DNA of 64,000 nucleotides from Escherichia coli (lineage in GTDB: Bacteria; Pseudomonadota; Gammaproteobacteria; Enterobacterales; Enterobacteriaceae), in assembly GCF_003991155.1 (NCBI RefSeq), contig NZ_CP031293.1; one strand, given 5' to 3'. How positions within the stretch are numbered: the stretch's first letter is position 1; every line of letters begins with the position of its first letter. A program made the position numbers and the translations under genes. Positions 1 to 46,756 of the stretch are shown here, one piece after another. Under the pieces are notes generated by a model. The model had not been told where the DNA came from. It did not search any database and saw nothing but the letters and a program-made list of their open reading frames with translations.

Positions 1-391
1 ATAACTCAGTGGCCATTTTAATGTTTTTTAAGCCCATCTGGCATTGCCCCATATAATAAACCAAAGAGAAATCGTTATCGGGAGATAGCATTAAACAGAT
101 ATGATACATGTCGAATGCCTTTTGATAATCTTTCTTCAATTGACAGACGGCGGCATATCCTTTTAGATAGTTATAATTTTGGAAATCATAAATACAGAGA
201 AATTTAAAAAAGAGTTCAGCTTCGTCAAGTCTTCCTTTTTCATAAAAGTTATAAGCGTAAGCATAAACGCCTTCAAGGGTATCCGGGGTTATGCCATGCA
301 GCTCTGCAAGTGTTGCTCCCATACCTAATGCACGTTCGAACTTACTGGCAATTTCTTTATTTTCTTCTAAATCCAGATTTGCGCTTTCCAT
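1..391 (-). CDS. Type III secretion class II chaperone-like protein (SycD/LcrH/SicA/IpgC family, TPR); first ~130 codons, 3' end beyond window start; possibly eicA of the ETT2-associated eip locus
   Basis: Minus-strand frame starts at ATG (plus 389-391) after an AAGGAG Shine-Dalgarno and runs off the window edge. Translation MESANLDLEENKEIASKFERALGMGATLAELHGITPDTLEGVYAYAYNFYEKGRLDEAELFFKFLCIYDF...AAVCQLKK closely resembles SicA/IpgC. Absent from ORF track because no stop lies inside the window. Confidence 0.55.
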   Translation of the reverse strand, partial: MESANLDLEENKEIASKFERALGMGATLAELHGITPDTLEGVYAYAYNFYEKGRLDEAELFFKFLCIYDFQNYNYLKGYAAVCQLKKDYQKAFDMYHICLMLSPDNDFSLVYYMGQCQMGLKNIKMATEL

Positions 392-29398: not shown

Positions 29399-30646
29399 TT
29401 AGCCAAATTTAGGTAACACGTTAAAGACGTTACCGAACCAGCATAAAATTACGGTTATACCAAAGAGAATGACAATCGCCGGAATAAGATTGCCGCCCCA
29501 GACTGTGAACATCTGATTGGGAAATTTCTTGCGGGCTTTGATTGCCAGCACTGCGGGAATAATGACCGCCCAGATGGTGGCGCACAGTCCGGCACCGCCG
29601 ATCCCGTAAATAAAGCCGTTCGGGAAGATCAGATACAACAACGCGGGTGGCAGGAAGGTTAACAGCACGGTTTTGAAACGCCCGGCGTGGGAGTTATCAA
29701 TCTTAAACAGATCCGCCAGATAATCGAACAATCCCAGCGTGACACCAAAGAACGAACTGGCAACAGCTAAGTTAGAGAACACCAGCAGGCAAAACTCGAT
29801 AATCCCATGCTGTTTGGTGCCGAGGAATGATTTCACCAGCGAATCAACGTTGCCGCCTGAGGAGATTATCGCCTTAAAGCTTTCTCGCGGGATATTCCCC
29901 ATCGTGCAATAGAGCCAGAAGAGATAAATCACCAGCGCCAGCAGCGAACCGAAGACCACGCTTTTGATTAGCTTATCTTTGCGTTTTCCATAGCAAATAA
30001 TCAGGCTGGGAATATTGCCGTGGAAACCAAATGACGCCAGACACACCGGCAAAGCCATAAAGATATACGGGAAGTAAGACTTACCCGCAGTGGAGCTGGC
30101 TGCATCGCGCAGAATGGAATAATCGGCCTGGAAGAAGAGAGAGCCAAACACGATCACAAAGGAGATAATCTTCAGCCCGAGGAACAATGAGGTAATACGA
30201 CTGGCGGCTAACGAACTTATCCACAATACGCTGGCAACGAAAATGGCTGTGCAGACTCCGACAATACGTGGATTAGCGTGATAACTCAGATTCATTGATA
30301 TCGTTTCGCTAATGATTGCGCCGTTAGCAGAAATATAGGCATAAGTGAGGATATAGAGAACGAAGGCAACGGTAATACCGCTGATAATGTTCCAGGTGTT
30401 ACCGATTAAATCTTTGGCGATGGTGTTAAAACTGGATCCGACGGGATAGTTTAAATTTGCTTCTAATAACAATAACCCGGAATGAAGCATTGAAAACCAG
30501 GCAATGATAAGGATAAAGGCTCCCCAGAAAAACCAGGCACCGGCAAGATCAACAGGTAAAGCAAACATCCCACCGCCAATTACCGTACCGGCTATAACCA
30601 TAACACCCCAAAATGCAGAGTGTTTTTTTTCAGCTTGTTCAGTCAT
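29399..30646 (-). CDS. tnaB: Low-affinity tryptophan permease TnaB
   Basis: 415 aa; matches E. coli TnaB. Confidence 0.9.
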   Translation of the reverse strand: MTEQAEKKHSAFWGVMVIAGTVIGGGMFALPVDLAGAWFFWGAFILIIAWFSMLHSGLLLLEANLNYPVGSSFNTIAKDLIGNTWNIISGITVAFVLYILTYAYISANGAIISETISMNLSYHANPRIVGVCTAIFVASVLWISSLAASRITSLFLGLKIISFVIVFGSLFFQADYSILRDAASSTAGKSYFPYIFMALPVCLASFGFHGNIPSLIICYGKRKDKLIKSVVFGSLLALVIYLFWLYCTMGNIPRESFKAIISSGGNVDSLVKSFLGTKQHGIIEFCLLVFSNLAVASSFFGVTLGLFDYLADLFKIDNSHAGRFKTVLLTFLPPALLYLIFPNGFIYGIGGAGLCATIWAVIIPAVLAIKARKKFPNQMFTVWGGNLIPAIVILFGITVILCWFGNVFNVLPKFG

Positions 30647-30737
30647 GATGCCACCTTTAGATGAAGGCTATTTTTATTATTGAGGATGTAGGGTAAGAGA
30701 GTGGCTAACATCCTTATAGCCACTCTGAGTGTTTTAA

Positions 30738-32153
30738 TTAAACTTCTTTCAGTTTTGCGGTGAAGTGACGCAATACTTTCGGTTCGTAGGTAAAGGTTAA
30801 CCCTTTAATATTCGCCGCGTTCTCTTTCACATGTTTAAAGGCTTCAATAATGAAGTCCATATGTGTTTGAGTATATGTTGCGCGCGGAATGGTTAAACGC
30901 AGCAGTTCAGCCGGGCATGGCAGTTGTTTACCGGTTTTCGGATCGCGGCCTAACAGGAAAGAGCCAATTTCTACCGCACGGATACCGGCGACTTTATACA
31001 GCTCGCAGGCCAGCGCCTGTGCCGGGAACTGATCTGCCGGGATATGCGGCAGTAGTTTACCGGCATCAACGAATGCCGCGTGACCGCCCGCCTGCTGGCA
31101 GACAACGCCAATCTCTTCCAGGCCATCGACCAGATACTGCACCTGCGCAATACGATAAGCCAGCCAGTCCAGATTCATGCCGTCATACAGACCTACCGCC
31201 AGACGCTCCATAGCGCCGCCTTCCAGGCCGCCATATGTCGGGAAGCCTTCCTGCACCACGCAAAGGGTTCTGCATTCGGTGTACACATCAAAGAAGCTGT
31301 CGTCTTTCATGCACAGCAGGCCGCCCATCGGCACCATCGCATCTTTCTTGGCGGACATCGCCAGCATATCGGCATATTTGTAGGTTTCGCGGGTGATTTG
31401 CTCGATGGTCCAGTCTTTGTATTCTGCTTCACGCTGCTTGATGAAATAGGCGTTTTCGGCAAAGCGTGCGGAGTCCATTACCACCGGAATATCGTATTTC
31501 TTCGCGATGCTGTACATCGCTTTTAAGTTTGCCAGTGAAACCGGCTGACCACCTGCGGAGTTACTGGTGATGGTTGCAACGATATACGGCACGTTATTCG
31601 GGCCAACTTCTTCAATACCGCGTTCTAATCCCTCAAGGTCAAAGTTGCCTTTAAAGTCGTAACGCACGCCCGTATCGAAGGCTTCTTTGATATAGACGTT
31701 ACGCACGGTACAGCCGTTAATCTGGCTATGGCCCTGCGTGGTATCAAAGAAATAGTTAGAGAACGCCACCATTTTGCTGCGATCCAGGCCTTTTTCCTGC
31801 TCGCGTTTTTTAATCAGTACCGGAATATAGATTTGCTCTGCACCACGGCCCTGGTGAGTCGGAATAGTGTATTGATAACCAAAGATATTTTTCACTGACT
31901 CGGCTAACGCGTAGTAGCTGCGGCTGCCGCTGTAAGCTTCGTCGCCGCGCATCATCGCGGCCTGCATACTCTGCGTCACCGCCCCGGTACCGCTGTCGGT
32001 CAGTAAATCGATAAACACATCTTCACTATCCAGCAGGAACGGGTTCATGCCGGCTTTAATAATTGCTTCTTCACGATAAGCGCGAGTGGTACGTTTTACT
32101 GGCTCAATAACACGAATGCGGAACGGTTCAGGGAGATGTTTAAAGTTTTCCAT
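30738..32153 (-). CDS. tnaA: Tryptophanase TnaA
   Basis: ORF 30738..32168 trimmed to [11 protein letters not shown] (471 aa); matches E. coli TnaA. Confidence 0.9.
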
Positions 32154-32359
32154 TACGTAATCCTTCATTTATTTTAAGGACAGAAAATTACGGAGATATT
32201 GCAAATGCAATACCCGATAGTTCGCTAAAATATTTGCAAGAGACATCATTTATAAAAATGAATGATAGTCTTTACAAAAGCAGAAATAAGATATGCCAAA
32301 CAGACAGGTTAGATGGAATTCAATCTATTTGACAAAAATGATGGTTACAGAAAGGCAAG

Positions 32360-32434
32360 TTAAGGGTGGTGTTCAACAATCTTGTTGTCGATATTGAACC
32401 ATTTTGAGGTCACACATATATGTAAGATATTCAT
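32360..32434 (-). CDS. tnaC: tna operon leader peptide TnaC (24 aa)
   Basis: Minus-strand ATG AAT ATC TTA CAT ATA TGT GTG ACC TCA AAA TGG TTC AAT ATC GAC AAC AAG ATT GTT … CCT TAA gives MNILHICVTSKWFNIDNKIV..P with Trp12 and Pro24, ~205 bp upstream of tnaA. Confidence 0.75.
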   Translation of the reverse strand: MNILHICVTSKWFNIDNKIVEHHP

Positions 32435-36180: not shown

Positions 36181-36836
36181 TACTTATTTGGTGGACACCA
36201 CTTTGTCTAATTCGTCAGATTCTGACCAGACGGTTCAGGCTGTACGCTTACGTAGAACGCAGGTTCGTTTCGGTTCAGGATCGCGACAGTGCCCCCTCAC
36301 CTTCAGCTACAGTTCCCATAGAATTTTTTTCAGGTCAGTAATACTGGCTGCTGTTGTTGTCAGGATTTGATAGCTCATAAGCCCCGTTTGTCTTATTGGT
36401 ATAAGAGCATCTTTAAAAGCACTCTTAAAAGTACTCGTGTTGAAAAAACAGCCAGAACAAATGAAGTATGGCTCTTTCCGACAACTCTCTAAAACGTTCT
36501 GTAACACATTCTGAGCGTTTTTACGTCAGTTAGGCACGCCGCTCAGTGCTTCTGAGCGGCCTTGTTGCCGCGATCTGTTGTCCTGATCTTGATAAATGAA
36601 CATCAATACGGCGTTCCGTCAGTGTTTACAATAACTCCCAATTCATAACTACTTTTAACACATTTGTGTGATTCCCCCTTTCTGCTGAAAATATAGTTAT
36701 TTCCAATATAATCAATGAGTTTTATTAATTTGTTGATTTTTTTTTTCATGTTTTTTTTGTGATAATTATCATTTGAATGTGAATGTTGCTCCTGAATAAT
36801 GTTTATCAAAGTTGTCTGGTACGAGGGAGAAATTTC

Positions 36837-38099
36837 ATGGCTATCATCATGGGGATCATCGCTGACGATTTTACTGGCGCGACTGATATTGCCTGCTTTA
36901 TGGCAGAGAATGGTTTTCGGGTTGCGCTGTTGCCCGGTTTGCATGCACTCACGCAGTCATGGGATGAAGAGGCTGATGCAATAGTCATTTCACTGAAAAG
37001 TCGTTCATTACCCGCGAATCAGGCAATTGAGCAGACTTTGCTAAGTTATCATTGGTTGCGTGACTGTGCGGGGGCGCAGCAGATCTATTTCAAATATTGC
37101 TCAACATTTGATTCCACTGCAGATGGCAATATCGGCCCGGTCAGCGATGCACTGATGAAGGTGATGGGCACACCTTATGTCGTGCATTGTCCCGCTTTGC
37201 CCCAAAATGGCCGAACAGTTATCCATGGACATCTTTTTGTTAACGGTATACCCCTTAACGAATCCGGCATGGAAAAACACCCCCTGAATCCAATGACCGA
37301 CACTAACCTGCTGCGCGTACTGGCTGCACAAACCCCCAATAGAGTTGGTAATCTTGATCTGAGGACAGTTCAACAGGGCGAGCAAGCCATCACCACCGCA
37401 CTTTCCCGTTGTCAGGCTGAAGGGAAGCAACACATTATTGTCGATACATTAACTGAAAATGATCTGCAAAGCCTGGCAAATGTATTACGCCATACACCTT
37501 TACTGGCTGGGGGATCCGGACTGGGTGGGGCGTTAGCCGCTTTTTTACAGCAACATCCTTATACGCCAGCCTCCGCGTTTCCCAATCCTGCCAGAACGGT
37601 AATCTTCTCCGGAAGTTGTTCAGTGATGAGTAATCGACAGGTGGATGCTTATAAATCGCATGCAGCCACGCAGTTGCTTGATGTTGCTCGTTGTCTGGAC
37701 GATGGCAATAGATATATCGATCAATTACTTGAATGGACAATTGCGCACATCAATGATCCGCTTGCTCCGTTGATTTACGCCACTCAACCTGCGGATGTGT
37801 TGAAATCTATACAGCAAACCTGGGGTGAACACGCGGCAAGTAAAGCCATTGAACAAACTTTTGCGCAGCTTAGCCAAAAATTGCAGGTCGCGGGTGTCAA
37901 CACTTTTATTGTTGCTGGGGGAGAAACTTCCGGGACTGTAGTGGAAGCGCTAAATGTGAAACGGCTAACAGTGGGGAGCACTATTACGCCGGGCGTACCA
38001 TGGGTTTTTTCGGCAGAACCGCCCCTGGCACTGGCGCTGAAATCTGGCAATTTTGGGGAGCCTGATTTTTTCATTAAGGCTCAGGAGCATGGATTATGA
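36837..38099 (+). CDS. Four-carbon acid-sugar kinase family protein (DUF1537; OtnK/YgbK-like)
   Basis: ORF 36783..38099 trimmed to Met19 after a GAGGGAG ribosome-binding site; N-terminal MGIIADDFTGATD motif. Confidence 0.75.
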   Translation: MAIIMGIIADDFTGATDIACFMAENGFRVALLPGLHALTQSWDEEADAIVISLKSRSLPANQAIEQTLLSYHWLRDCAGAQQIYFKYCSTFDSTADGNIGPVSDALMKVMGTPYVVHCPALPQNGRTVIHGHLFVNGIPLNESGMEKHPLNPMTDTNLLRVLAAQTPNRVGNLDLRTVQQGEQAITTALSRCQAEGKQHIIVDTLTENDLQSLANVLRHTPLLAGGSGLGGALAAFLQQHPYTPASAFPNPARTVIFSGSCSVMSNRQVDAYKSHAATQLLDVARCLDDGNRYIDQLLEWTIAHINDPLAPLIYATQPADVLKSIQQTWGEHAASKAIEQTFAQLSQKLQVAGVNTFIVAGGETSGTVVEALNVKRLTVGSTITPGVPWVFSAEPPLALALKSGNFGEPDFFIKAQEHGL

Positions 38100-38734
38100 G
38101 TGAACTCATCGAACAAAAATTACGTGAACAACTCGTCTATTACGGGCGTTCGCTCTTTATGCGCGGTTTCAGTAGTGGCGGTTCCGGCAATATCAGCGTC
38201 AAACTGGCTGAAGACCGTTTTTTGGTCACGCCGACCAATTCCTGTCTTGGCGAGTTAGATAGTGAAAGAGTGAGTCTTATCGATATTCATGGCAACCATA
38301 TCAGTGGTGATAAGCCGTCAAAAGAGGTGCCTATGCATCTTGCCTGGTATCGACATCGTCCGAACTGTGGAGCGGTGGTACATCTGCACTCGCCATGGCT
38401 GACGGCACTTTCGTGTTTACCTTGCACAACACCAGAGAATTGCTTACCGCCGCTCACTCCCTATTACGTGATGCGTGTGGGGAAATTACCATTATTGCCT
38501 TATTTCAAACCAGGACATGAGGATATCGCTACGGCATTAAGCCATATAGCGGCCGACTCTACCGCAGCTCTGTTGGCGAATCATGGCCCCGTTGTCAGCG
38601 GAAGAACATTGCGCGAAGCGGTATTTAATGCCGAAGAGCTGGAAGACAGTGCCCGTATCTGGCTGACCTTAAAACCACTTGGCTATGTTCCTCTTTCGGC
38701 AAAAGACATCGCTGAACTGGAACAGGCCAGATGA
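38096..38734 (+). CDS. Class II aldolase/adducin-family protein (OtnC/YgbL-like decarboxylase)
   Basis: 212 aa; start overlaps the kinase stop; class II aldolase-fold motifs. Confidence 0.7.
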   Translation: MSELIEQKLREQLVYYGRSLFMRGFSSGGSGNISVKLAEDRFLVTPTNSCLGELDSERVSLIDIHGNHISGDKPSKEVPMHLAWYRHRPNCGAVVHLHSPWLTALSCLPCTTPENCLPPLTPYYVMRVGKLPLLPYFKPGHEDIATALSHIAADSTAALLANHGPVVSGRTLREAVFNAEELEDSARIWLTLKPLGYVPLSAKDIAELEQAR

Positions 38735-38749
38735 TAACGAGGTGAGAGG

Positions 38750-39556
38750 ATGATACCCGAGCAAAGGCGAGACTTTATTTACCGCTATGTCCATGAGAAA
38801 AACGTTGCTTCATTTAATGAACTGGCTGAGTTGATGAGCGTTTCGCATATGACAGTGCGTCGTGATATTCAATTACTGGAAGAAGAAGGCAAAGTTATTA
38901 CCATAAATGGCGGCGTTAAGCTGAACAACCAACTTAAATTGGAGTTACCGTGGCGAGAAAAAGCTGAACTGCATCATGATATTAAGCGTGACATGGGGCA
39001 GCTTGCTGCGATGTTGATCGAACCCGGGCAGACACTCTATTTAGATGCCGGAACCTCATTATTTGAGGTCGCAAAAGCAATCGTTGCCAGCCAGTGCTTT
39101 AATCTCACTATCGTGACAAATGATTTCTCTATCAGCCATTACCTGATGGATATGCAACATATCACGCTTTACCACACCGGGGGATTGGTAGATCAACGCA
39201 ATCGTTCTTGTTTGGGGAAAAGTGCAGCTGATTTTCTGCGCACGATTAATATCGATGTTGCATTTCTTAGCTCCTCTTCATGGGATACACAAAGAGGAAT
39301 GTCAACACCAAATGAAGGTAAAGCTACAGTGAAAGAGGCGGCGCTTACGGTCTCCCGTCGCCGCGTATTAGTGTGTGATAGCAGTAAATTCGGTAAATAC
39401 GGAATGTTCCATATATGCGAGCTCAGCCAATTGACCGATATCATTTCAGATAACCAGTTGCCTTTATCGGCGCAGGAAAGCATTACACAGCTGGGCGTGA
39501 AATTACATCTGGTTAATAGCCGGGAGGGAACGCAGCATGTTGAAGCTGGCGGCTAA
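38750..39556 (+). CDS. DeoR-family transcriptional regulator (YgbI-like)
   Basis: 268 aa; N-terminal HTH (…FNELAELMSVSHMTVRRDIQLLEEEGKV…) plus sugar-binding domain. Confidence 0.75.
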   Translation: MIPEQRRDFIYRYVHEKNVASFNELAELMSVSHMTVRRDIQLLEEEGKVITINGGVKLNNQLKLELPWREKAELHHDIKRDMGQLAAMLIEPGQTLYLDAGTSLFEVAKAIVASQCFNLTIVTNDFSISHYLMDMQHITLYHTGGLVDQRNRSCLGKSAADFLRTINIDVAFLSSSSWDTQRGMSTPNEGKATVKEAALTVSRRRVLVCDSSKFGKYGMFHICELSQLTDIISDNQLPLSAQESITQLGVKLHLVNSREGTQHVEAGG

Positions 39557-40313
39557 TCTCGACTGGTTGTTCACAGAACTGCCGATGTCTGCACGGTTTC
39601 ATGCAGCCAGACGGGAGGGGTTTCGTGCTGTTGAAGGAATGTTTTTCTGTCAGCATTCTCTGGATATGCTGAGAATTGCGCAGCAAGAATCGGGAATGAG
39701 CGTGGTGCTGATGAATGCTCCGGCAGGTGACTGGCTACGAGGTGAGCGTGGCCTGGCTGCACTTCCTGGCCGCGATGATGAATACCTGAACAGTTTGCTC
39801 ATTGCCCGCCGATATGCAGGGACGCTGGGATGCAGGCAGGTTCATGTTATGGCGGGCCTTCGGGATCACTCTGTGACAGAAGATGAACAACTGGAGTTAC
39901 TGGTTAATCGCTTGTGCATAGCCTGCGATGTGCTGGCGGAAAAAGATATTACAGTATTAATCGAACCCCTGAATTCTGAAGATATGCCTGGCTATATTAT
40001 TAATAGCCTTCCTCGAGCAAAAGATATTATCCGGCGGGTTTCTCACCAAAATATTGGTTTGCAGTTTGATATTTATCATTGCCAGAAAATTCATGGTAAT
40101 GTCACCCAAAATATAGATAAATATTTATCAATAGTTAAGCATTTTCAGATTGCCTCTGTGCCTGGTCGCCACGAACCAGGTTCTGGTGAGCTAAATGATA
40201 CGTGGATATTAAATTTTATTAATCAAAAAAACTTCCAGGGCTGGATTGGCTGTGAGTATAAACCTTCCACACTGACAACCGAGTCATTACGCTGGATGAA
40301 ACCATATTTATAA
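39537..40313 (+). CDS. Hydroxypyruvate isomerase-family TIM-barrel protein (OtnI/YgbM-like)
   Basis: 258 aa, xylose-isomerase-like TIM barrel; overlaps regulator stop. Confidence 0.65.
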   Translation: MLKLAANLDWLFTELPMSARFHAARREGFRAVEGMFFCQHSLDMLRIAQQESGMSVVLMNAPAGDWLRGERGLAALPGRDDEYLNSLLIARRYAGTLGCRQVHVMAGLRDHSVTEDEQLELLVNRLCIACDVLAEKDITVLIEPLNSEDMPGYIINSLPRAKDIIRRVSHQNIGLQFDIYHCQKIHGNVTQNIDKYLSIVKHFQIASVPGRHEPGSGELNDTWILNFINQKNFQGWIGCEYKPSTLTTESLRWMKPYL

Positions 40314-40334
40314 AATCTTTTTCTGGAGGAAAAT

Positions 40335-41147
40335 ATGTCGGATACCGTCATAATTTCGTTGGCACCTGTGGCCGCAGACTGCACCAGAGTCATACCCGAA
40401 GAATTGGCGCAGGAAATTTTGGCTTGCGTTGAATATGGAGCAGCAATTGTTCATTTACACGTTCGTGATAAGCAAGGCAAGTTAACGCCAGATACAACCG
40501 ATTTCCAGTCAACCATTGATCTCGTCAGACATCAATCAGACTTAATTATTCAGGCTTCTACGGGCGGAGTCTCTGCCATGTCAATAGCCGAGCGTTGCGC
40601 GCCTCTGGACTGCCCTGGCGTTGAAATGGCGTCGCTGAATGTAGGGTCGGTGAACCTTGGTGATGCCGTCTACGCTAATCCAACACCGGATGTCGAATAT
40701 TGTTCACAGCAAATTACCGCGCGTAGTATTGTTCCTGAATTTGAAGTGTTTGAAATTGGAATGGTTAATAATATTTTAACCCTCAATGAAAAGATAAAAT
40801 TCAGAAACCCCATGTTATTTAATATTGTACTTGGTCATAGAGGAAGTTCTCCGGCGACAATAGATGCATTAATTGCGATGCGCAGTATGATCCCGCGAGA
40901 TGCATTATGGGGTATTACTCACTTTGGCAGAAAGAATTTTGATGTTATTGCTGCTGCGGTAGCTATGGGAGCTAGCGAGGTCAGAATTGGTTTTGAAGAT
41001 AGTTATTATTTAAGTGCAGAGGAGATGGCGGAACAAAATTATCAGCAAGTTAAAAAACTCGCCAGACTTATTCGTAGTATGGATAAACAAGTGGCCTCAC
41101 CGGAAATTGCCCGACGGATATTAAATATCCCAATCCGGCAGCAATGA
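40335..41147 (+). CDS. Beta-keto acid cleavage enzyme (BKACE/DUF849, 3-keto-5-aminohexanoate cleavage enzyme family)
   Basis: 270 aa; …AAIVHLHVRDKQGK… resembles the BKACE metal-binding motif. Confidence 0.6.
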   Translation: MSDTVIISLAPVAADCTRVIPEELAQEILACVEYGAAIVHLHVRDKQGKLTPDTTDFQSTIDLVRHQSDLIIQASTGGVSAMSIAERCAPLDCPGVEMASLNVGSVNLGDAVYANPTPDVEYCSQQITARSIVPEFEVFEIGMVNNILTLNEKIKFRNPMLFNIVLGHRGSSPATIDALIAMRSMIPRDALWGITHFGRKNFDVIAAAVAMGASEVRIGFEDSYYLSAEEMAEQNYQQVKKLARLIRSMDKQVASPEIARRILNIPIRQQ

Positions 41148-41168
41148 CGACAGACAGGACATTTTACT

Positions 41169-42479
41169 ATGACTATAACAACCCTAATACAAAAAGCAGG
41201 ACTTACAATCTGTATAGCTGGCGGTGTACTCGCGGCAACAGGCGGGTTGATGCAATCCGCTGTGCTCTGGCAACCTGGATTGGTGATGCTTACTGCAGGC
41301 TTTGCCCTCGGTGCTGGTTACTGGCCGATACTTCGAAGTTATCAATTCACGTTATGGATTATCGCAGGTTTCGTGGCTGCGATGACCTGGTCGATGGATT
41401 TGATTGTCTGGGGCGGGTTTAACATTACTCACAAATGGATCGTGTTTTTAGTCATTCAGGCAACGATGTTCAGTATGGGTACCAAACTGACGATTCAGGA
41501 TTTTATCGATGTTGCCAAAATGCCATGGGCGGTGTTTATTGGCACCTTCTGCCACTTTGTGATTATGCCGTTGCTGGGGCTAACCATTACGCTGTTATTT
41601 GATTTTCCGCCAGAAGTTGCGGTGGGGATCCTGCTCATAGGTGCCTGCCCTAGCGGTTTATCATCAACTGTTATGGTTTATATCGCTAACGCGAACCTCG
41701 CGCTGGCGGTATCAATCGCCGCAGTTTCTACGCTGGCAGCAACGGTTATGACGCCGTTGTGGGTAAATTTGCTGGCTGGCTCCATGATTGACATCCAACT
41801 TACCGCAATGGTTATGGACGTGGTGAAAATTGTCCTTATACCAATTGGTGCAGCAATTTTGCATGACTACCTGAAAACGTACGCTGGAGTTCGAGGTCGA
41901 CGAACCGTGCAGCTTCTCGCCGGGATCTGCGCCCTGTGGCTAATTTACATGAGCTCTGGTGGTTGGGACTATCTCTTTGACAACGCCAGTGCAGACGTAC
42001 AAATGTATGCCGTGGTACTGAACTTTGTCACGGGTGGCATTGTATGGGCGTTGTTCTATAACTGGCTGTACAGTCGCGTGGAAGGCATTCAAAAGATTAT
42101 GCCAACCATCTCTATGATTGGGATCATCTTCTTTACCACCACCGCTGCGGCAGCTGGTCGTGATAACCTGTTGCAGGTTGGTTTCCTGCTTTGTTTCGCC
42201 ATGTTGTTGCATAACCTTGGCGGTTTCCTGATTGGCTATCTGATGAGTCGCTGGATATTCCGCATGGACGAACAATCGTCCCGTACCGTAGCCTTTGAAG
42301 TGGGATTGCAAAACGGAGGTATGGCGTCAGGTCTGGCAGCGGCAATGGGCAAACTGGCTACAGTTGGCCTTGCCTCTGCAGTCATGACACCTCTCGGCAA
42401 TGTGAGTGGTTCGCTGTTGGCAAACTACTGGCGCAAAAAAGACGCTCGTAAAGCACAGACTGCGAATAAAGACAAATAG
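41169..42479 (+). CDS. BASS-fold (bile acid:Na+ symporter-like) membrane transporter
   Basis: 436-aa polytopic protein; …GACPSGLSSTVMVYIANANLALAVSIAAVSTLAA… resembles BASS crossover motifs. Confidence 0.6.
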   Translation: MTITTLIQKAGLTICIAGGVLAATGGLMQSAVLWQPGLVMLTAGFALGAGYWPILRSYQFTLWIIAGFVAAMTWSMDLIVWGGFNITHKWIVFLVIQATMFSMGTKLTIQDFIDVAKMPWAVFIGTFCHFVIMPLLGLTITLLFDFPPEVAVGILLIGACPSGLSSTVMVYIANANLALAVSIAAVSTLAATVMTPLWVNLLAGSMIDIQLTAMVMDVVKIVLIPIGAAILHDYLKTYAGVRGRRTVQLLAGICALWLIYMSSGGWDYLFDNASADVQMYAVVLNFVTGGIVWALFYNWLYSRVEGIQKIMPTISMIGIIFFTTTAAAAGRDNLLQVGFLLCFAMLLHNLGGFLIGYLMSRWIFRMDEQSSRTVAFEVGLQNGGMASGLAAAMGKLATVGLASAVMTPLGNVSGSLLANYWRKKDARKAQTANKDK

Positions 42480-42514
42480 TCTGCCTGTTGTAACCTTTCA
42501 AAAGGAAACTCAAT

Positions 42515-42934
42515 ATGACGACATTGACCCTGAAACAAGCATTGCTTGCAGTAGAGTATGCGCTTGATCTTGCAGTGCAACAATATGCTGGCCGTCCTTT
42601 AAGTGTGGCAGTATGCGATGTTAATGGTGAATTGCTGAGCTTTGCCCGCATGGATAGAGCCAAACTGTTAACTATTGAATTAACGCAGCGTAAAGCACGA
42701 ACCAGTAGTCGTCTGGGCTGTACGACAGCAGCATTCTTACAGCGTCTACAAAAAGAGCAACTTGATATCAGCTATTTTGGAGATCCCCGGTTTACCGCAT
42801 TACCAGGAGGGATCCCTATTCTGGTTAAAGGAAAATGCATTGGTGCTGTTGCTGTGGGGGGATTATCCGCACGAGAAGATCATGATGCGGCACAGGCTGT
42901 CGCAGATAAACTGCTTGAGGAGATGACCAAATGA
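42515..42934 (+). CDS. GlcG/HbpS-like protein (DUF336)
   Basis: 139 aa; …GGIPILVKGKCIGAVAVGG… typical of GlcG-like proteins. Confidence 0.65.
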   Translation: MTTLTLKQALLAVEYALDLAVQQYAGRPLSVAVCDVNGELLSFARMDRAKLLTIELTQRKARTSSRLGCTTAAFLQRLQKEQLDISYFGDPRFTALPGGIPILVKGKCIGAVAVGGLSAREDHDAAQAVADKLLEEMTK

Positions 42935-43581
42935 AAAAAATAGCCATGCTTCACACCAGTTCAGCCACGCTTGCGGTGATGCAACAACTGATAGGCGATA
43001 TCATGCCTGAGGCTGAAGTGATGCATCTGGTTGAGGAGTCTATGATTAAGCAGGTGATGAAAGCGGGCGGTGTTACGCCAGATATCGCCGCACGGATCGC
43101 TGATTACATACGGATCGCTGAAAAAGCCGACTGCGATATTTTCATTACCGCTTGTTCATCAATTGGTACTGCTGTCGAACAGTGTCAATTTATGACTTCA
43201 GTACAACTGGCACGGATTGACTGTGCGATGGTGGATGAAGCAATCAACAAAGGGGAACACATTGCTGTGCTGGCAACGGTGGCCACAACGCTGAAACCGA
43301 CGCTTGATTTTGTCCGGCGAAAAGTTCAGGAAAGTGGAAAACAGCGGATTATTACACCTGTTTTAATGGAAGAAGCCTTCCATGCGTTATTGAATGGTGA
43401 TATGGGAACGCATGACCGCATTGTGAGTGAAGGATTACAAAAGGCCTTTGGGCAGGCAGATGTTATTATGTTAGCGCAGGCATCGATGGCACGGGTGCTG
43501 CAAAATATGCCTGAGCCTCCGGTTCCGGTATTAACATCGCCAGAAAGCGGTATTCGCTGGTTGAAAACATTCGCGAGTTAA
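42931..43581 (+). CDS. Asp/Glu/hydantoin racemase-family enzyme
   Basis: 216 aa; start overlaps GlcG stop; conserved Cys-containing ACSS segment. Confidence 0.6.
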   Translation: MKKIAMLHTSSATLAVMQQLIGDIMPEAEVMHLVEESMIKQVMKAGGVTPDIAARIADYIRIAEKADCDIFITACSSIGTAVEQCQFMTSVQLARIDCAMVDEAINKGEHIAVLATVATTLKPTLDFVRRKVQESGKQRIITPVLMEEAFHALLNGDMGTHDRIVSEGLQKAFGQADVIMLAQASMARVLQNMPEPPVPVLTSPESGIRWLKTFAS

Positions 43582-44101
43582 GTCAGGTATAGTTTCTATA
43601 TTAAAGACGTTTACACATAATGGTGTACAGGCCCATTCAGAAACGGAACTGGGAATTTATTAACGGATAATCCGGAAACGTATTAAATGGCAGAAGGTAA
43701 CTACTTTCTGCCATTTCACAGACAGGATGTACATATTAATCGGCCATGATGGTTGACATAAAAAATGCATCGGCAGTGATGTGGCAAGTTTTTCCCGGAC
43801 AATGTTTTTCTTCATCCCACTTGCAGAAAATATATAATATTATATTTTATATAACATTTTCTAACTCATTGAATACACTTGCAAATCTTCTCATTCTTAC
43901 TTAGAAATATTATTAATTTTAACGTTCTTTGTTGAATGTTTGTTTGGTTACAGCCATCTAATTTTTTAAATGCACAGTATCTGTGGATAACTTTGCGTAA
44001 ACACTGGGGACAGAGCTCGTTGAACCAGAGAAAGCACGCATGAAAACAAAATACTCATTCTTTAACCATTCTGTATAAGATCAGATGTCAGATCTGCTCA
44101 A

Positions 44102-45983: not shown

Positions 45984-46756
45984 ATGAAAATACTCATTGC
46001 AGGGGCAACCGGAAGTATTGGTCTTCATGTCGTGAATACCGCTATTGAAATGGGTCATCAGCCCGTGGCGCTGGTCAGAAATAAACGCAAAGTAAAATCT
46101 CTTCCTCGTGGAACAGATGTTTTTTACGGCGATGTTTCAATGCCGGAAACACTCACCGAATTGCCGAAAGATATTGATGCCATCATCTTCACTCTCGGTT
46201 CTGATGGCCAGGGGCGTATTGGTGCCAGAGCGATCGATTACGGAGGAGTGCGTAATATTTTGCGAATATTCAGGGATACACCTGTTCGTATCAGCTAATG
46301 ACCACGATTGGCGTGACTGAGCGGCTCAGCACTTGGAATCAACGCACTGAGGTTCATGACAGGAAAAGACGTGCCGAGCGTCTGGTCAGGGCCAGCGGTC
46401 ATCCCTATATTATCGTCCGGCCCGGCTGGTTTGATTACAACAATGATGATGAACACAGGATCGTTATGCTTCAGGGGGATCGTCGCCATGCAGGAACACC
46501 GGAAGATGGTGTGATATCCCGGGAGCAAATCGCCCAGGTTCTGGTCAGTGCCCTGACCAACGACGAGGCAAAAAATAAAACGTTCGAGCTGGTGGCTGAA
46601 CGAGGTGAAGCACCACAGGATCTTACCCCACTGTTTGCAGAACTGCAGACTGATGATGCACAAAAAAATGATGGGGTTCTGGACATAGACAATATGCAGC
46701 TGAGAGAAGAACCGGAGTGCATTATTAACGAGCTGAACCTGTATTCAAAAAATTAA
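45984..46756 (+). pseudogene. NAD(P)-binding SDR/NmrA-like oxidoreductase gene split into two ORFs (104 aa + 152 aa)
   Basis: N-terminal Rossmann motif GATGSIGLHVV in ORF1; ORF2 continues the same fold in a different frame; ORFs overlap at TAATG (46296-46300). Confidence 0.5.

Follow-up and report, generated by a model that had tools for sequence, protein, structure and literature searches.

Which compound is degraded by an Escherichia coli operon that joins the kinase, decarboxylase and isomerase types of the oxo-tetronate pathway to a BKACE (beta-keto-acid cleavage enzyme) homologue, a racemase-like protein, a GlcG-like protein and a BASS-family transporter, and how does this compound enter the pathway if no dehydrogenase is encoded? 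This question is raised by eight genes at positions 36837-43581 of a 64,000-nucleotide stretch of the E. coli chromosome (RefSeq assembly GCF_003991155.1, contig NZ_CP031293.1), which is referred to here as the window. Based on the gene content, conservation, active-site features and genomic associations observed for these genes, the cassette is proposed to be the proteobacterial form of a pathway that is widespread and uncharacterised and acts on a branched aldo-acid sugar, with aceric acid as the most likely substrate. This reading is tentative and is given slightly less than an even chance, and the individual steps of the pathway are held with lower confidence than the reading as a whole.

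All eight genes are intact open reading frames (ORFs) on the + strand and coincide with RefSeq gene calls. NCBIfam release 20 equivalog cutoffs were used to decide membership in families of defined function, and families in the wider sense were assigned by Pfam and profile searches. The operon comprises the following features:

36650..36836, + strand: operon regulatory region with blocks conserved in four genera
36837..38099, + strand: OtnK-type DUF1537 acid-sugar kinase, 420 aa (NF043035; named otnK in RefSeq)
38096..38734, + strand: OtnC-type class II aldolase-fold enzyme, 212 aa (NF043034; RefSeq name only 'aldolase')
38750..39556, + strand: DeoR/GlpR-family repressor, YgbI-like, 268 aa (NF040890)
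39537..40313, + strand: Hyi/OtnI-family TIM-barrel isomerase, 258 aa (NF043033/Hyi, both sub-cutoff)
40335..41147, + strand: BKACE-fold (DUF849) Zn enzyme of a distinct subfamily, 270 aa (PF05853)
41169..42479, + strand: BASS/SBF-family carboxylate transporter, 436 aa (TIGR00841)
42515..42934, + strand: GlcG/HbpS-like (DUF336) protein, 139 aa (RefSeq name GlcG/HbpS family)
42931..43581, + strand: one-cysteine member of the Asp/Glu-racemase superfamily, 216 aa (PF01177)

The gene families named in a first-pass annotation, which had been made from the letters of the window and a list of their ORFs, were borne out by the ORFs, RefSeq calls and profile searches, with sub-cutoff scores for the OtnI-like protein. 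The tight packing described there is likewise real: overlaps of 4 bp (otnK/otnC), 20 bp (deoR/otnI) and 4 bp (glcG/racemase-like) alternate with gaps of 15 bp (otnC/deoR), 21 bp (otnI/BKACE), 21 bp (BKACE/BASS) and 35 bp (BASS/glcG).

Within the lower half of the operon, the kinase scored 510 bits on the 3-oxo-tetronate kinase model NF043035 (cutoff 350) over residues 5-417 of 420, shows the full-length SBD_N plus NBD_C architecture and is thus an OtnK family member; it reached just 134 bits on the OiaK model and falls outside that equivalog. OtnC passed the 3-oxo-tetronate-4-phosphate decarboxylase model narrowly (NF043034, 289 bits, cutoff 250). The OtnI-like protein remained below both the OtnI cutoff (NF043033, 282 of 325 bits) and that of hydroxypyruvate isomerase, on which it scored about equally (275 of 353 bits), and is therefore a member at family level only. 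The DeoR protein is YgbI-like but below cutoff (NF040890, 261 of 400 bits). Identities to the K-12 proteins amount to 48% (OtnK/YgbK), 52% (OtnC/YgbL), 38% (OtnI-like/YgbM) and 45% (DeoR/YgbI), and the four proteins are diverged paralogues of these.

The cassette is not confined to E. coli. BKACE homologues with 64-85% identity were detected in Citrobacter, Klebsiella, Trabulsiella, Enterobacter, Erwiniaceae, Yersinia frederiksenii, Edaphovirga and Budvicia. A comparison for synteny, as suggested in the first-pass annotation, recovered all eight genes in identical order at three unrelated chromosomal sites (BKACE identity 64-83%), namely between an AraC-type regulator and sucCD in Klebsiella, between a PTS/alcohol dehydrogenase (ADH) operon and a helix-turn-helix gene in Yersinia, and between glpE and rpoH in Budvicia. 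Such recurrence of eight genes in the same order in three other genera and at other sites is far more than chance would provide. A truncated IS66 (ISCro1-like) element indeed lies upstream of the E. coli cassette, and it had been suspected that a gene was lost there. This can be ruled out, since otnK is also the first cassette gene in Klebsiella, Yersinia and Budvicia and the upstream region is conserved, and intact in E. coli; together with the shared gene order, these features indicate that the cassette is complete. It is a fusion of two modules, an upper one (DeoR-BKACE-BASS-GlcG-racemase-like) and a lower one (OtnK-OtnC-OtnI).

Sequence blocks within 190 bp 5' of otnK are kept in E. coli, Klebsiella, Yersinia and Budvicia. 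At approximately 36657-36673 lies an inverted repeat (type (T)TCACA-N6-8-TGTGA(A)), and at approximately 36756-36784 the conserved block TTTGTGATAATTATCATTTGAATGTGAA; the TGTGAnAATnATCATnTGAATGTGAA block (36756-36784), conserved in the four genera, resembles a CRP half-site plus repeat. The conserved blocks are candidate DeoR operator and CRP sites, with putative operator and promoter roles. Furthermore, a GAGGGAG ribosome-binding site precedes the otnK ATG, and a sigma-70-like site (CTGAAA-16-TATAAT) is found at 36685-36712, in a region whose total promoter matches are not above shuffle expectation. Counts from the promoter and terminator scans likewise did not exceed shuffle expectation, and no convincing terminator was seen directly after 43581.

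A dehydrogenase of the LtnD/YgbJ type (or Ltn3D) was found in none of the cassettes of E. coli, Klebsiella, Yersinia and Budvicia, which confirms the absence noted at first pass. The cassette consequently lacks the co-encoded NAD-dependent 2-dehydrogenase by which the canonical L-threonate/D-erythronate cluster is defined. An NAD(P)-binding SDR/NmrA-like gene at 45984-46756 (+ strand), split by a frameshift into ORFs of 104 aa and 152 aa and listed in RefSeq as a frameshifted SDR oxidoreductase, follows downstream of the cassette behind a RepA fragment, a TnpB fragment and other mobile-element debris. It was ruled out as the missing dehydrogenase because this debris separates it from the cassette and because it is absent from the cassette of the other genera.

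The racemase-like protein matches PF01177 Asp_Glu_race (E=4e-16), and its AlphaFold (AF2) model (pLDDT 96) resembles Glu and Asp racemases in Foldseek comparisons (TM 0.75-0.80), with identities of at most 18% to any solved structure. A phmmer search against PDB sequences returned nothing significant, and the protein was placed solely by profile and fold searches. In an alignment of 40 diverse members, Cys75 (ACSS motif) and Gln183 (LAQ(A/G)SM) are invariant. Profile alignment equates Cys75 with the first catalytic Cys of glutamate racemase and Gln183 with the second catalytic Cys (LGC motif) of allantoin racemase 5LFD. The fold implied by the first-pass term 'racemase-family enzyme' was thus confirmed, but the two catalytic Cys, or Cys/Thr, one per domain, of a two-base racemase are not present. 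A single catalytic Cys excludes a two-base racemase and fits a single-base isomerase, and the protein belongs to a large uncharacterised one-cysteine subfamily of one-base enzymes; an exhaustive search recovered 1,221 cluster representatives at E<=1e-10. NCBIfam release 20 holds no model for this protein, for the BKACE subfamily of the cassette or for the RuBisCO-like protein (RLP) described below. Among 92 racemase-like sequences from every genomic context, C75-S76-S77, D97, T116, P123-T124 and S203-P204 are invariant, and the chemistry is therefore probably the same in all contexts. His161, otherwise conserved in the family, is replaced by Phe in three Firmicutes (L010, L091 and L092; labels of this kind denote genome or metagenome loci compared in this analysis), and is therefore probably not essential for catalysis. 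A role of the arylmalonate-decarboxylase type was set aside, since the downstream DUF1537 kinases and RLP/OtnC decarboxylases need a carboxylate that persists.

One genome per species was scanned for racemase-like relatives. They were found in at least 578 genomes, and the best 80 of these at least 578 loci were analysed by own ORF calling and clustering of the neighbouring genes. A DUF1537 kinase accompanied the racemase-like gene in 72 of the best 80 loci, an orthologue of the BASS transporter in 69 and an RLP in 61, the commonest order being RLP - kinase - racemase-like - BASS. The racemase-like gene is accordingly the hub of a system much larger than the cassette. In the RLP-type loci the kinase is OiaK-like (439 bits, cutoff 700) and the RLP is OiaX-like (503 bits, cutoff 700), and both stay below the NF042436/NF042437 equivalog thresholds. 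Moreover, the aceric-acid hydrolase family was represented within 10 kb of the racemase-like gene in 21 of the 80 loci; in 10 of these it stands immediately upstream and on the same strand. The two members scored, from L021 and L068, both pass the NF049879 cutoff of 950 bits, L021 with 1194 bits. A Chloroflexi locus shows the order GH2 - aceric-acid hydrolase (AceA, 996 bits) - RLP - kinase - racemase-like. Further neighbours include SusC/D, a BT0996-like glucuronidase/arabinofuranosidase, rhamnosidases and a pectate-lyase-like protein, and the metagenomic protein P0254 (1082 aa) is a fusion of a racemase-like domain (residues 1-212) and an alpha-L-rhamnosidase of the GH78 type (618 bits, NF041573). 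In Sphingobacterium (L015, 985-9839) and a planctomycete (L089, 3-7369) the racemase-like/BASS/RLP/kinase module is contiguous with a second sugar module consisting of a split transketolase, an RbsABC-like sugar transporter, an FGGY (GlpK-like) kinase and an epimerase-fold isomerase. This second module resembles the D-apiose transketolase pathway, and two rare sugars of rhamnogalacturonan-II appear to be handled by one locus in these organisms. Taken together, the neighbourhoods point to an acidic monosaccharide of rhamnogalacturonan-II.

The transporter of the E. coli cassette agrees with these loci. It scored 171 bits on TIGR00841 and 172 bits on the PanS model (NF047939, cutoff 400), and hence is not assigned to PanS; its full-length identity to the BASS protein of a Hymenobacter racemase-like/kinase/RLP locus is 48% (373 bits), which is far closer than PanS. 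In some other loci its position is taken by TRAP or MFS acid transporters.

The second unusual enzyme of the cassette is the BKACE-fold protein (PF05853, E=3e-69). Its best equivalog match, Kce, yielded 243 bits (cutoff 382), and it lies below every BKACE equivalog cutoff. Nevertheless, the metal site of the fold is complete: the Zn ligands H40, H42 and E221 and the catalytic E137, none of which varies within the subfamily, correspond to Kce His46, His48, Glu230 and Glu143, and Arg217 and Asp222 of the Kce type are also conserved. At the position of Kce Tyr145, however, Phe139 is found, invariantly in 21 members of the subfamily with 51-83% identity. According to the flavophos preprint, this Tyr (PdKce Tyr173) contacts the sulfur of coenzyme A (CoA). 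BsfD, a non-canonical member of the fold, also carries Phe in its place. With the Tyr replaced and the equivalog scores below cutoff, the protein does not qualify as a canonical acetyl-CoA-dependent BKACE. Furthermore, genes for CoA-transferase, thiolase, acetoacetate or acyl-CoA handling were absent from inside the cluster at the 14 BKACE-subfamily loci examined. Lacking both the CoA-contacting Tyr and CoA/acetoacetate genes, the enzyme is doubtful as a catalyst of canonical BKACE chemistry, which is the beta-keto-acid option raised at first pass. Activities without CoA are known in the fold (PMC4922564 Table 7; PDB 5ZMU), and members with other chemistry comprise the decarboxylation-only group G6, cis-epoxysuccinate hydrolase and BsfD. 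For the E. coli-type cluster a plain decarboxylase as in G6 was not adopted, because it would deprive OtnK and OtnC of their substrate.

A racemase-like gene lies within a few genes of the BKACE gene in 14 of 14 BKACE-subfamily loci examined. The following arrangements were observed:

Enterobacterales: the eight-gene cassette
Alphaproteobacterial metagenome-assembled genome (MAG): DeoR, then OtnK - BKACE - BASS - racemase-like - OtnC - OtnI
Soil proteobacterial MAG: a TRAP transporter replaces BASS
Propionivibrio: TRAP - BKACE - GlcG - racemase-like
Desulfovibrio: racemase-like - TRAP - GntR - BKACE
Contig L097: DeoR, OtnC, OtnK, then divergently DctP - DctQM - racemase-like - BKACE
L098: racemase-like - TRAP - GntR - cupin - BKACE - HIBADH-type dehydrogenase
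Paenibacillus: racemase-like - kinase - BKACE, adjoining a sugar ABC transporter
Lachnospiraceae: GH2 - racemase-like - GH127 - kinase - BKACE - SASA - fucosidase
Oscillospiraceae: transketolase - ADH - FGGY - racemase-like - BKACE - ABC transporter - GH78 - GH43
Gut Firmicute: racemase-like and DUF1537 kinase fused (696 aa), adjoining BKACE
An Erwiniaceae genome: DeoR - BKACE - BASS - GlcG - racemase-like only

The Lachnospiraceae BKACE is 53% identical to that of E. coli. The 696-aa fusion protein is encoded on two gut metagenome contigs (L091, 7704-9794; L092, 7178-9268), directly upstream of the BKACE gene. It is a Rosetta-stone link between the first and the last gene of the E. coli cassette and ties the upper half functionally to the kinase. 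The possibility that the BKACE, BASS, GlcG and racemase-like genes constitute a separate, unrelated operon, which was considered at first pass, accordingly holds in so far as they can stand alone, as in the Erwiniaceae genome, yet the fusion connects them with the kinase. The kinases themselves differ in type: proteobacterial clusters with BKACE encode OtnK-type enzymes, which act on unbranched acids, and RLP-type clusters encode OiaK-type enzymes, which act on branched ones. Such a division is to be expected if the branch is removed before decarboxylation.

Not all genes of the cassette share this degree of conservation. The GlcG protein gave weak NCBIfam matches to heme-degrading-domain models, and its orthologues in Klebsiella and related loci carry PF03928 (HbpS-like). 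GlcG is present in some proteobacterial versions only and is absent from L008, L093, L097 and the Firmicutes loci, and the OtnI-like protein is absent from L097, L084, L099 and the Firmicutes and Bacteroidota modules. The OtnI-like protein is thus missing from several otherwise equivalent clusters, and both proteins are dispensable accessories.

Aceric acid is a rare branched sugar of the pectin component rhamnogalacturonan-II, from which it is freed by glycosidases. Chemically it represents 3-C-carboxy-5-deoxy-L-xylose, in its open-chain form OHC-CHOH-C(OH)(COO-)-CH(OH)CH3, a branched tetruronic acid. In the pathway proposed here, free aceric acid would be imported by the BASS transporter. 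The racemase-fold enzyme, acting as a single-base aldose-ketose isomerase, would then yield HOCH2-CO-C(OH)(COO-)-CH(OH)CH3, the methyl homologue of 3-oxo-isoapionate, which is a known OiaK substrate. In the third step the BKACE-fold Zn enzyme is predicted to split off the 1-hydroxyethyl branch in the form of acetaldehyde, in a retro-aldol reaction that needs no CoA, leaving 3-oxo-tetronate; this reaction would proceed through the same Zn-stabilised beta-keto-acid alpha-carbanion as BKACEs normally form. OtnK would phosphorylate 3-oxo-tetronate at its terminal CH2OH or, if this step preceded branch removal, the branched 3-oxo acid, and OtnC would decarboxylate 3-oxo-tetronate-4-phosphate to dihydroxyacetone phosphate (DHAP) and CO2. 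The net conversion would be that of aceric acid to DHAP, CO2 and acetaldehyde. The OtnI-like protein may hold the 2-oxo/3-oxo-tetronate pool in a kinase-competent form, the DeoR protein would be the repressor and GlcG an accessory. In the RLP-type loci of Bacteroidota, the RLP is expected to decarboxylate the phosphorylated acid to a 5-deoxypentulose 1-phosphate.

Several features of the loci are accounted for by this scheme. No dehydrogenase is needed because aceric acid already has both an aldehyde and a carboxylate, and one isomerisation gives a substrate of the DUF1537-kinase type. Aceric acid is also devoid of a primary hydroxyl group, so that a DUF1537 kinase cannot act before the isomerisation. 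The scheme therefore explains the carboxylate carrier, the universal one-base enzyme, which is sometimes fused to the kinase, and the OiaK/OiaX paralogues in Bacteroidota. It is the OtnK-type kinase, a type associated with unbranched acids, that leads to the proposal of hydroxyethyl-branch removal by BKACE. Finally, the stand-alone upper module of the Erwiniaceae genome fits a product that is usable by a separately encoded Otn pathway. As regards the first-pass proposal that an unusual four-carbon or related acid sugar is converted to DHAP, a new entry route is still the preferred reading, and a branched acid is likelier than a plain four-carbon substrate.

A number of observations weigh against the aceric-acid pathway. 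The linkage to aceric acid was seen directly in loci of Bacteroidota, Chloroflexi and Firmicutes alone, and among the loci seen no proteobacterial OtnK-type cluster lies beside a GH127. The Lachnospiraceae GH127 matches only the aceric-acid hydrolase model, with a score below its cutoff (731 of 950 bits). The E. coli racemase-like protein is approximately 40% identical to those in aceric-acid contexts, and its specificity could differ. The best 80 loci were picked by a peptide pattern that includes Gln183, so the invariance of Q183, S185 and M186 is partly by construction. In Thermoleophilia an MFS acid transporter, the racemase-like protein, OtnK and OtnC occur without BKACE, showing that the branch-removal step is not universal. 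In Caballeronia/Burkholderia loci (L052, L065 and L076) the racemase-like gene is found in a different, non-phosphorylative context, with genes for an MFS transporter, a Zn-ADH, aldehyde dehydrogenases, a PrpD/MmgE-like protein, an HpaI/GarL-type aldolase and a GhrB-type reductase, and with a canonical OtnK (648 bits) at a distance of about 5 kb; these loci may represent another, non-phosphorylative use of the same isomerase. The OtnI-like protein and GlcG have only vague roles in the scheme, none of them compelling. Moreover, we know of no BKACE-fold enzyme with demonstrated retro-aldol activity and of no aldose-ketose isomerase in the Asp/Glu racemase fold.

In its widest form, the proposal states that the operon and its hundreds of relatives are the missing aceric-acid catabolic pathway, with two activities new to their folds, phylum-specific third enzymes (RuBisCO-like, OtnC or BKACE) and scavenging in the gut, where the few carriers in E. 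coli, Klebsiella and Citrobacter would take up the free aceric acid that arises from pectin degradation by Bacteroidota and Firmicutes. This comprehensive version is possible, although it would go too far to call it probable.

Of the competing explanations, the one that survives best assumes an unbranched aldo-acid such as L-threo-tetruronate (tartrate semialdehyde) or a small plant- or ascorbate-derived acid, which the racemase-like enzyme would convert directly to 3-oxo-tetronate, while BKACE, the OtnI-like protein and GlcG would serve a side reaction or a second substrate. It draws on the fact that the kinase and the decarboxylase pass the equivalog cutoffs for enzymes of unbranched 3-oxo-tetronate, on the Thermoleophilia locus, in which transporter, racemase-like protein, OtnK and OtnC form a self-sufficient three-enzyme route suited to an unbranched substrate, and on the only moderate similarity (approximately 40% identity) of the E. 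coli racemase-like protein to those beside aceric-acid hydrolases. However, it leaves unexplained both the pairing of racemase-like and BKACE genes (14 of 14 loci) and the stand-alone BKACE-BASS-GlcG-racemase-like operon, and orthologues of BASS and BKACE occur in aceric-acid/rhamnogalacturonan-II contexts. Nor is there a known abundant source of free tetruronic acid to explain a family so widespread in polysaccharide degraders. An unbranched substrate is thus considered unlikely, though with some plausibility left.

Canonical BKACE chemistry is a weaker contender. Here a beta-keto acid and acetyl-CoA would give acetoacetate and an acyl-CoA, as in the lysine, carnitine and deoxyribonate routes, and the Otn genes would process one fragment. 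The strong Pfam match, the conserved Zn ligands, catalytic Glu, Arg and Asp, and Kce as the nearest curated family are in line with it, and 3-oxo-tetronate is itself a beta-keto acid. These points are outweighed by the sub-cutoff scores on every BKACE equivalog, by the invariant Phe at the CoA-contacting Tyr145 position, as in the non-canonical BsfD, and by the lack of any CoA-transferase, thiolase, acetoacetate or acyl-CoA gene inside the cluster (0 of 14 loci). In addition, the branched 3-oxo acid has no alpha-hydrogen, so that the Claisen step is impossible, and cleavage of 3-oxo-tetronate would give glycolyl-CoA and 2-hydroxyacetoacetate, bypassing OtnK and OtnC. We therefore judge this chemistry to be distinctly improbable.

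It is very improbable indeed that the cassette is a second copy of the L-threonate/D-erythronate pathway served in trans by ygbJ or an equivalent dehydrogenase, with BKACE, racemase-like, GlcG and BASS genes as an unrelated adjacent operon, since the above-cutoff scores of OtnK and OtnC, the presence of ygbIJKLMN elsewhere in E. coli and the solitary upper half in an Erwiniaceae genome are countered by the fact that the eight genes, some with stops and starts that overlap, travel together at four distinct chromosomal locations, by the adjacency of racemase-like gene and DUF1537 kinase in 72 of the best 80 loci and their fusion in a Firmicute, by the interleaving of both halves in other orders in alpha- and other proteobacterial variants, and by identities of only 38-52% to YgbK, YgbL, YgbM and YgbI.

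Within the species E. coli the cassette is rare. Bases 36500-44000 of the window were matched with at least 99% identity in 21 of 5,426 complete E. coli genomes, in each case on the chromosome and in one copy. The cassette is located on a mosaic island of approximately 45 kb at selC (tRNA-Sec), which is bordered by setC and by an integrase adjoining tRNA-Sec and is rich in insertion sequences (IS) and prophage debris. A tnaC-tnaA-tnaB tryptophanase operon within the island, at 29399-32434 (- strand), has IS110/IS66 fragments as well as pseudogene fragments of melA and bgl at its flanks; given its island-specific protein accessions, it may represent an additional or foreign copy and not the native tna locus. 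The segment 4634-23462 contains CP4-57-like prophage remnants with a CbtA/YeeU toxin-antitoxin pair, RadC, an antirestriction gene and DUF932, and furthermore IS3, an inovirus Gp2-family gene, a sugar kinase, and a cluster of pseudouridine kinase, pseudouridine-5'-phosphate glycosidase and NupC. At the edge of the window (1-391, - strand), a gene for a SycD/LcrH-family type III secretion chaperone is cut by the window start and neighbours yicS, nlpA and yicL.

No plant glycan in the diet is more complex than rhamnogalacturonan-II, whose glycosidases have been mapped. Should the aceric-acid pathway prove true, a function would be assigned to a family that occurs in at least 578 species-level genomes and is annotated only as 'aspartate/glutamate racemase family protein', and likewise to the BKACE subfamily, the OiaK/OiaX-like paralogues and the BASS transporter clade. 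It would also mean new chemistry in two superfamilies and a concrete cross-feeding niche for rare Enterobacterales lineages. Even with a wrong substrate, a conserved, mobile and dehydrogenase-free entry into the oxo-tetronate module remains that current annotation does not explain. Full-text literature searches identified no paper that combines these genes or describes aceric-acid catabolism, in keeping with the first-pass statement that the gene set was not known as a characterised pathway, and the NetSyn BKACE preprint mentions neither kinase nor racemase. The cassette can be described as an acid-sugar catabolic operon centred on a DUF1537 kinase, in which the proposed route of entry would be new.

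With the L-threonate/D-erythronate pathway the cassette shares the DUF1537 kinase, the class II aldolase-fold decarboxylase, the Hyi-family isomerase and the YgbI-like DeoR regulator, as well as DHAP as the predicted end product. This '4-step' pathway (LtnD/DenD, OtnI, OtnK and OtnC; E. coli ygbIJKLMN) was reportedly established by Zhang et al. in 2016. The cassette has neither its NAD-dependent dehydrogenase nor its GntP-type transporter and adds BKACE, BASS, GlcG and the racemase-like protein, so that entry would proceed by isomerisation and C-C cleavage instead of oxidation. The lower half probably functions as the published oxo-tetronate route does and belongs to it. PMC12994016 describes this route together with the Ltn3D and 3-step variants and the dehydrogenase-based definition; the SDR bypass of the Ltn3D paper (2026) is unrelated to this gene set.

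The oxidative D-apiose pathways follow the same logic, in that phosphorylation of a branched, 2-substituted acid of the 3-oxo-tetronate type by a DUF1537 kinase is followed by the loss of CO2. These pathways are said to have been reported by Carter et al. in 2018 and to run via 3-oxo-isoapionate, with OiaK followed either by a RuBisCO-like OiaX/OiaC decarboxylase or by OiaT. Both sugars originate from rhamnogalacturonan-II, and the Bacteroidota racemase-like modules use OiaK-like and OiaX-like paralogues. In contrast to the apiose pathways, there is no apiose dehydrogenase, lactonase or oxidoisomerase, in whose stead an acid transporter and the racemase-like enzyme are found, and the E. coli cassette relies on OtnK/OtnC types plus BKACE and is devoid of an RLP.

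At the level of single enzymes, arylmalonate decarboxylase, which keeps the second Cys only, is the mirror image of the racemase-like protein. With this enzyme, maleate isomerase and the Asp/Glu/hydantoin/allantoin racemases of PF01177, the protein shares the fold and the first Cys motif (ACSS versus ACNT), whereas it has LAQxSM instead of LGCxxM and is embedded in sugar catabolism and not in a context of amino acids, hydantoins or cell wall. In a comparable manner, the BKACE-fold enzyme has the TIM-barrel Zn architecture and the metal site in common with Kce of lysine fermentation (PDB 2Y7D-G), and differs from it by Phe in place of Tyr145, by a gene context free of CoA/acetoacetate functions and by the CoA-independent retro-aldol reaction that it is predicted to catalyse.

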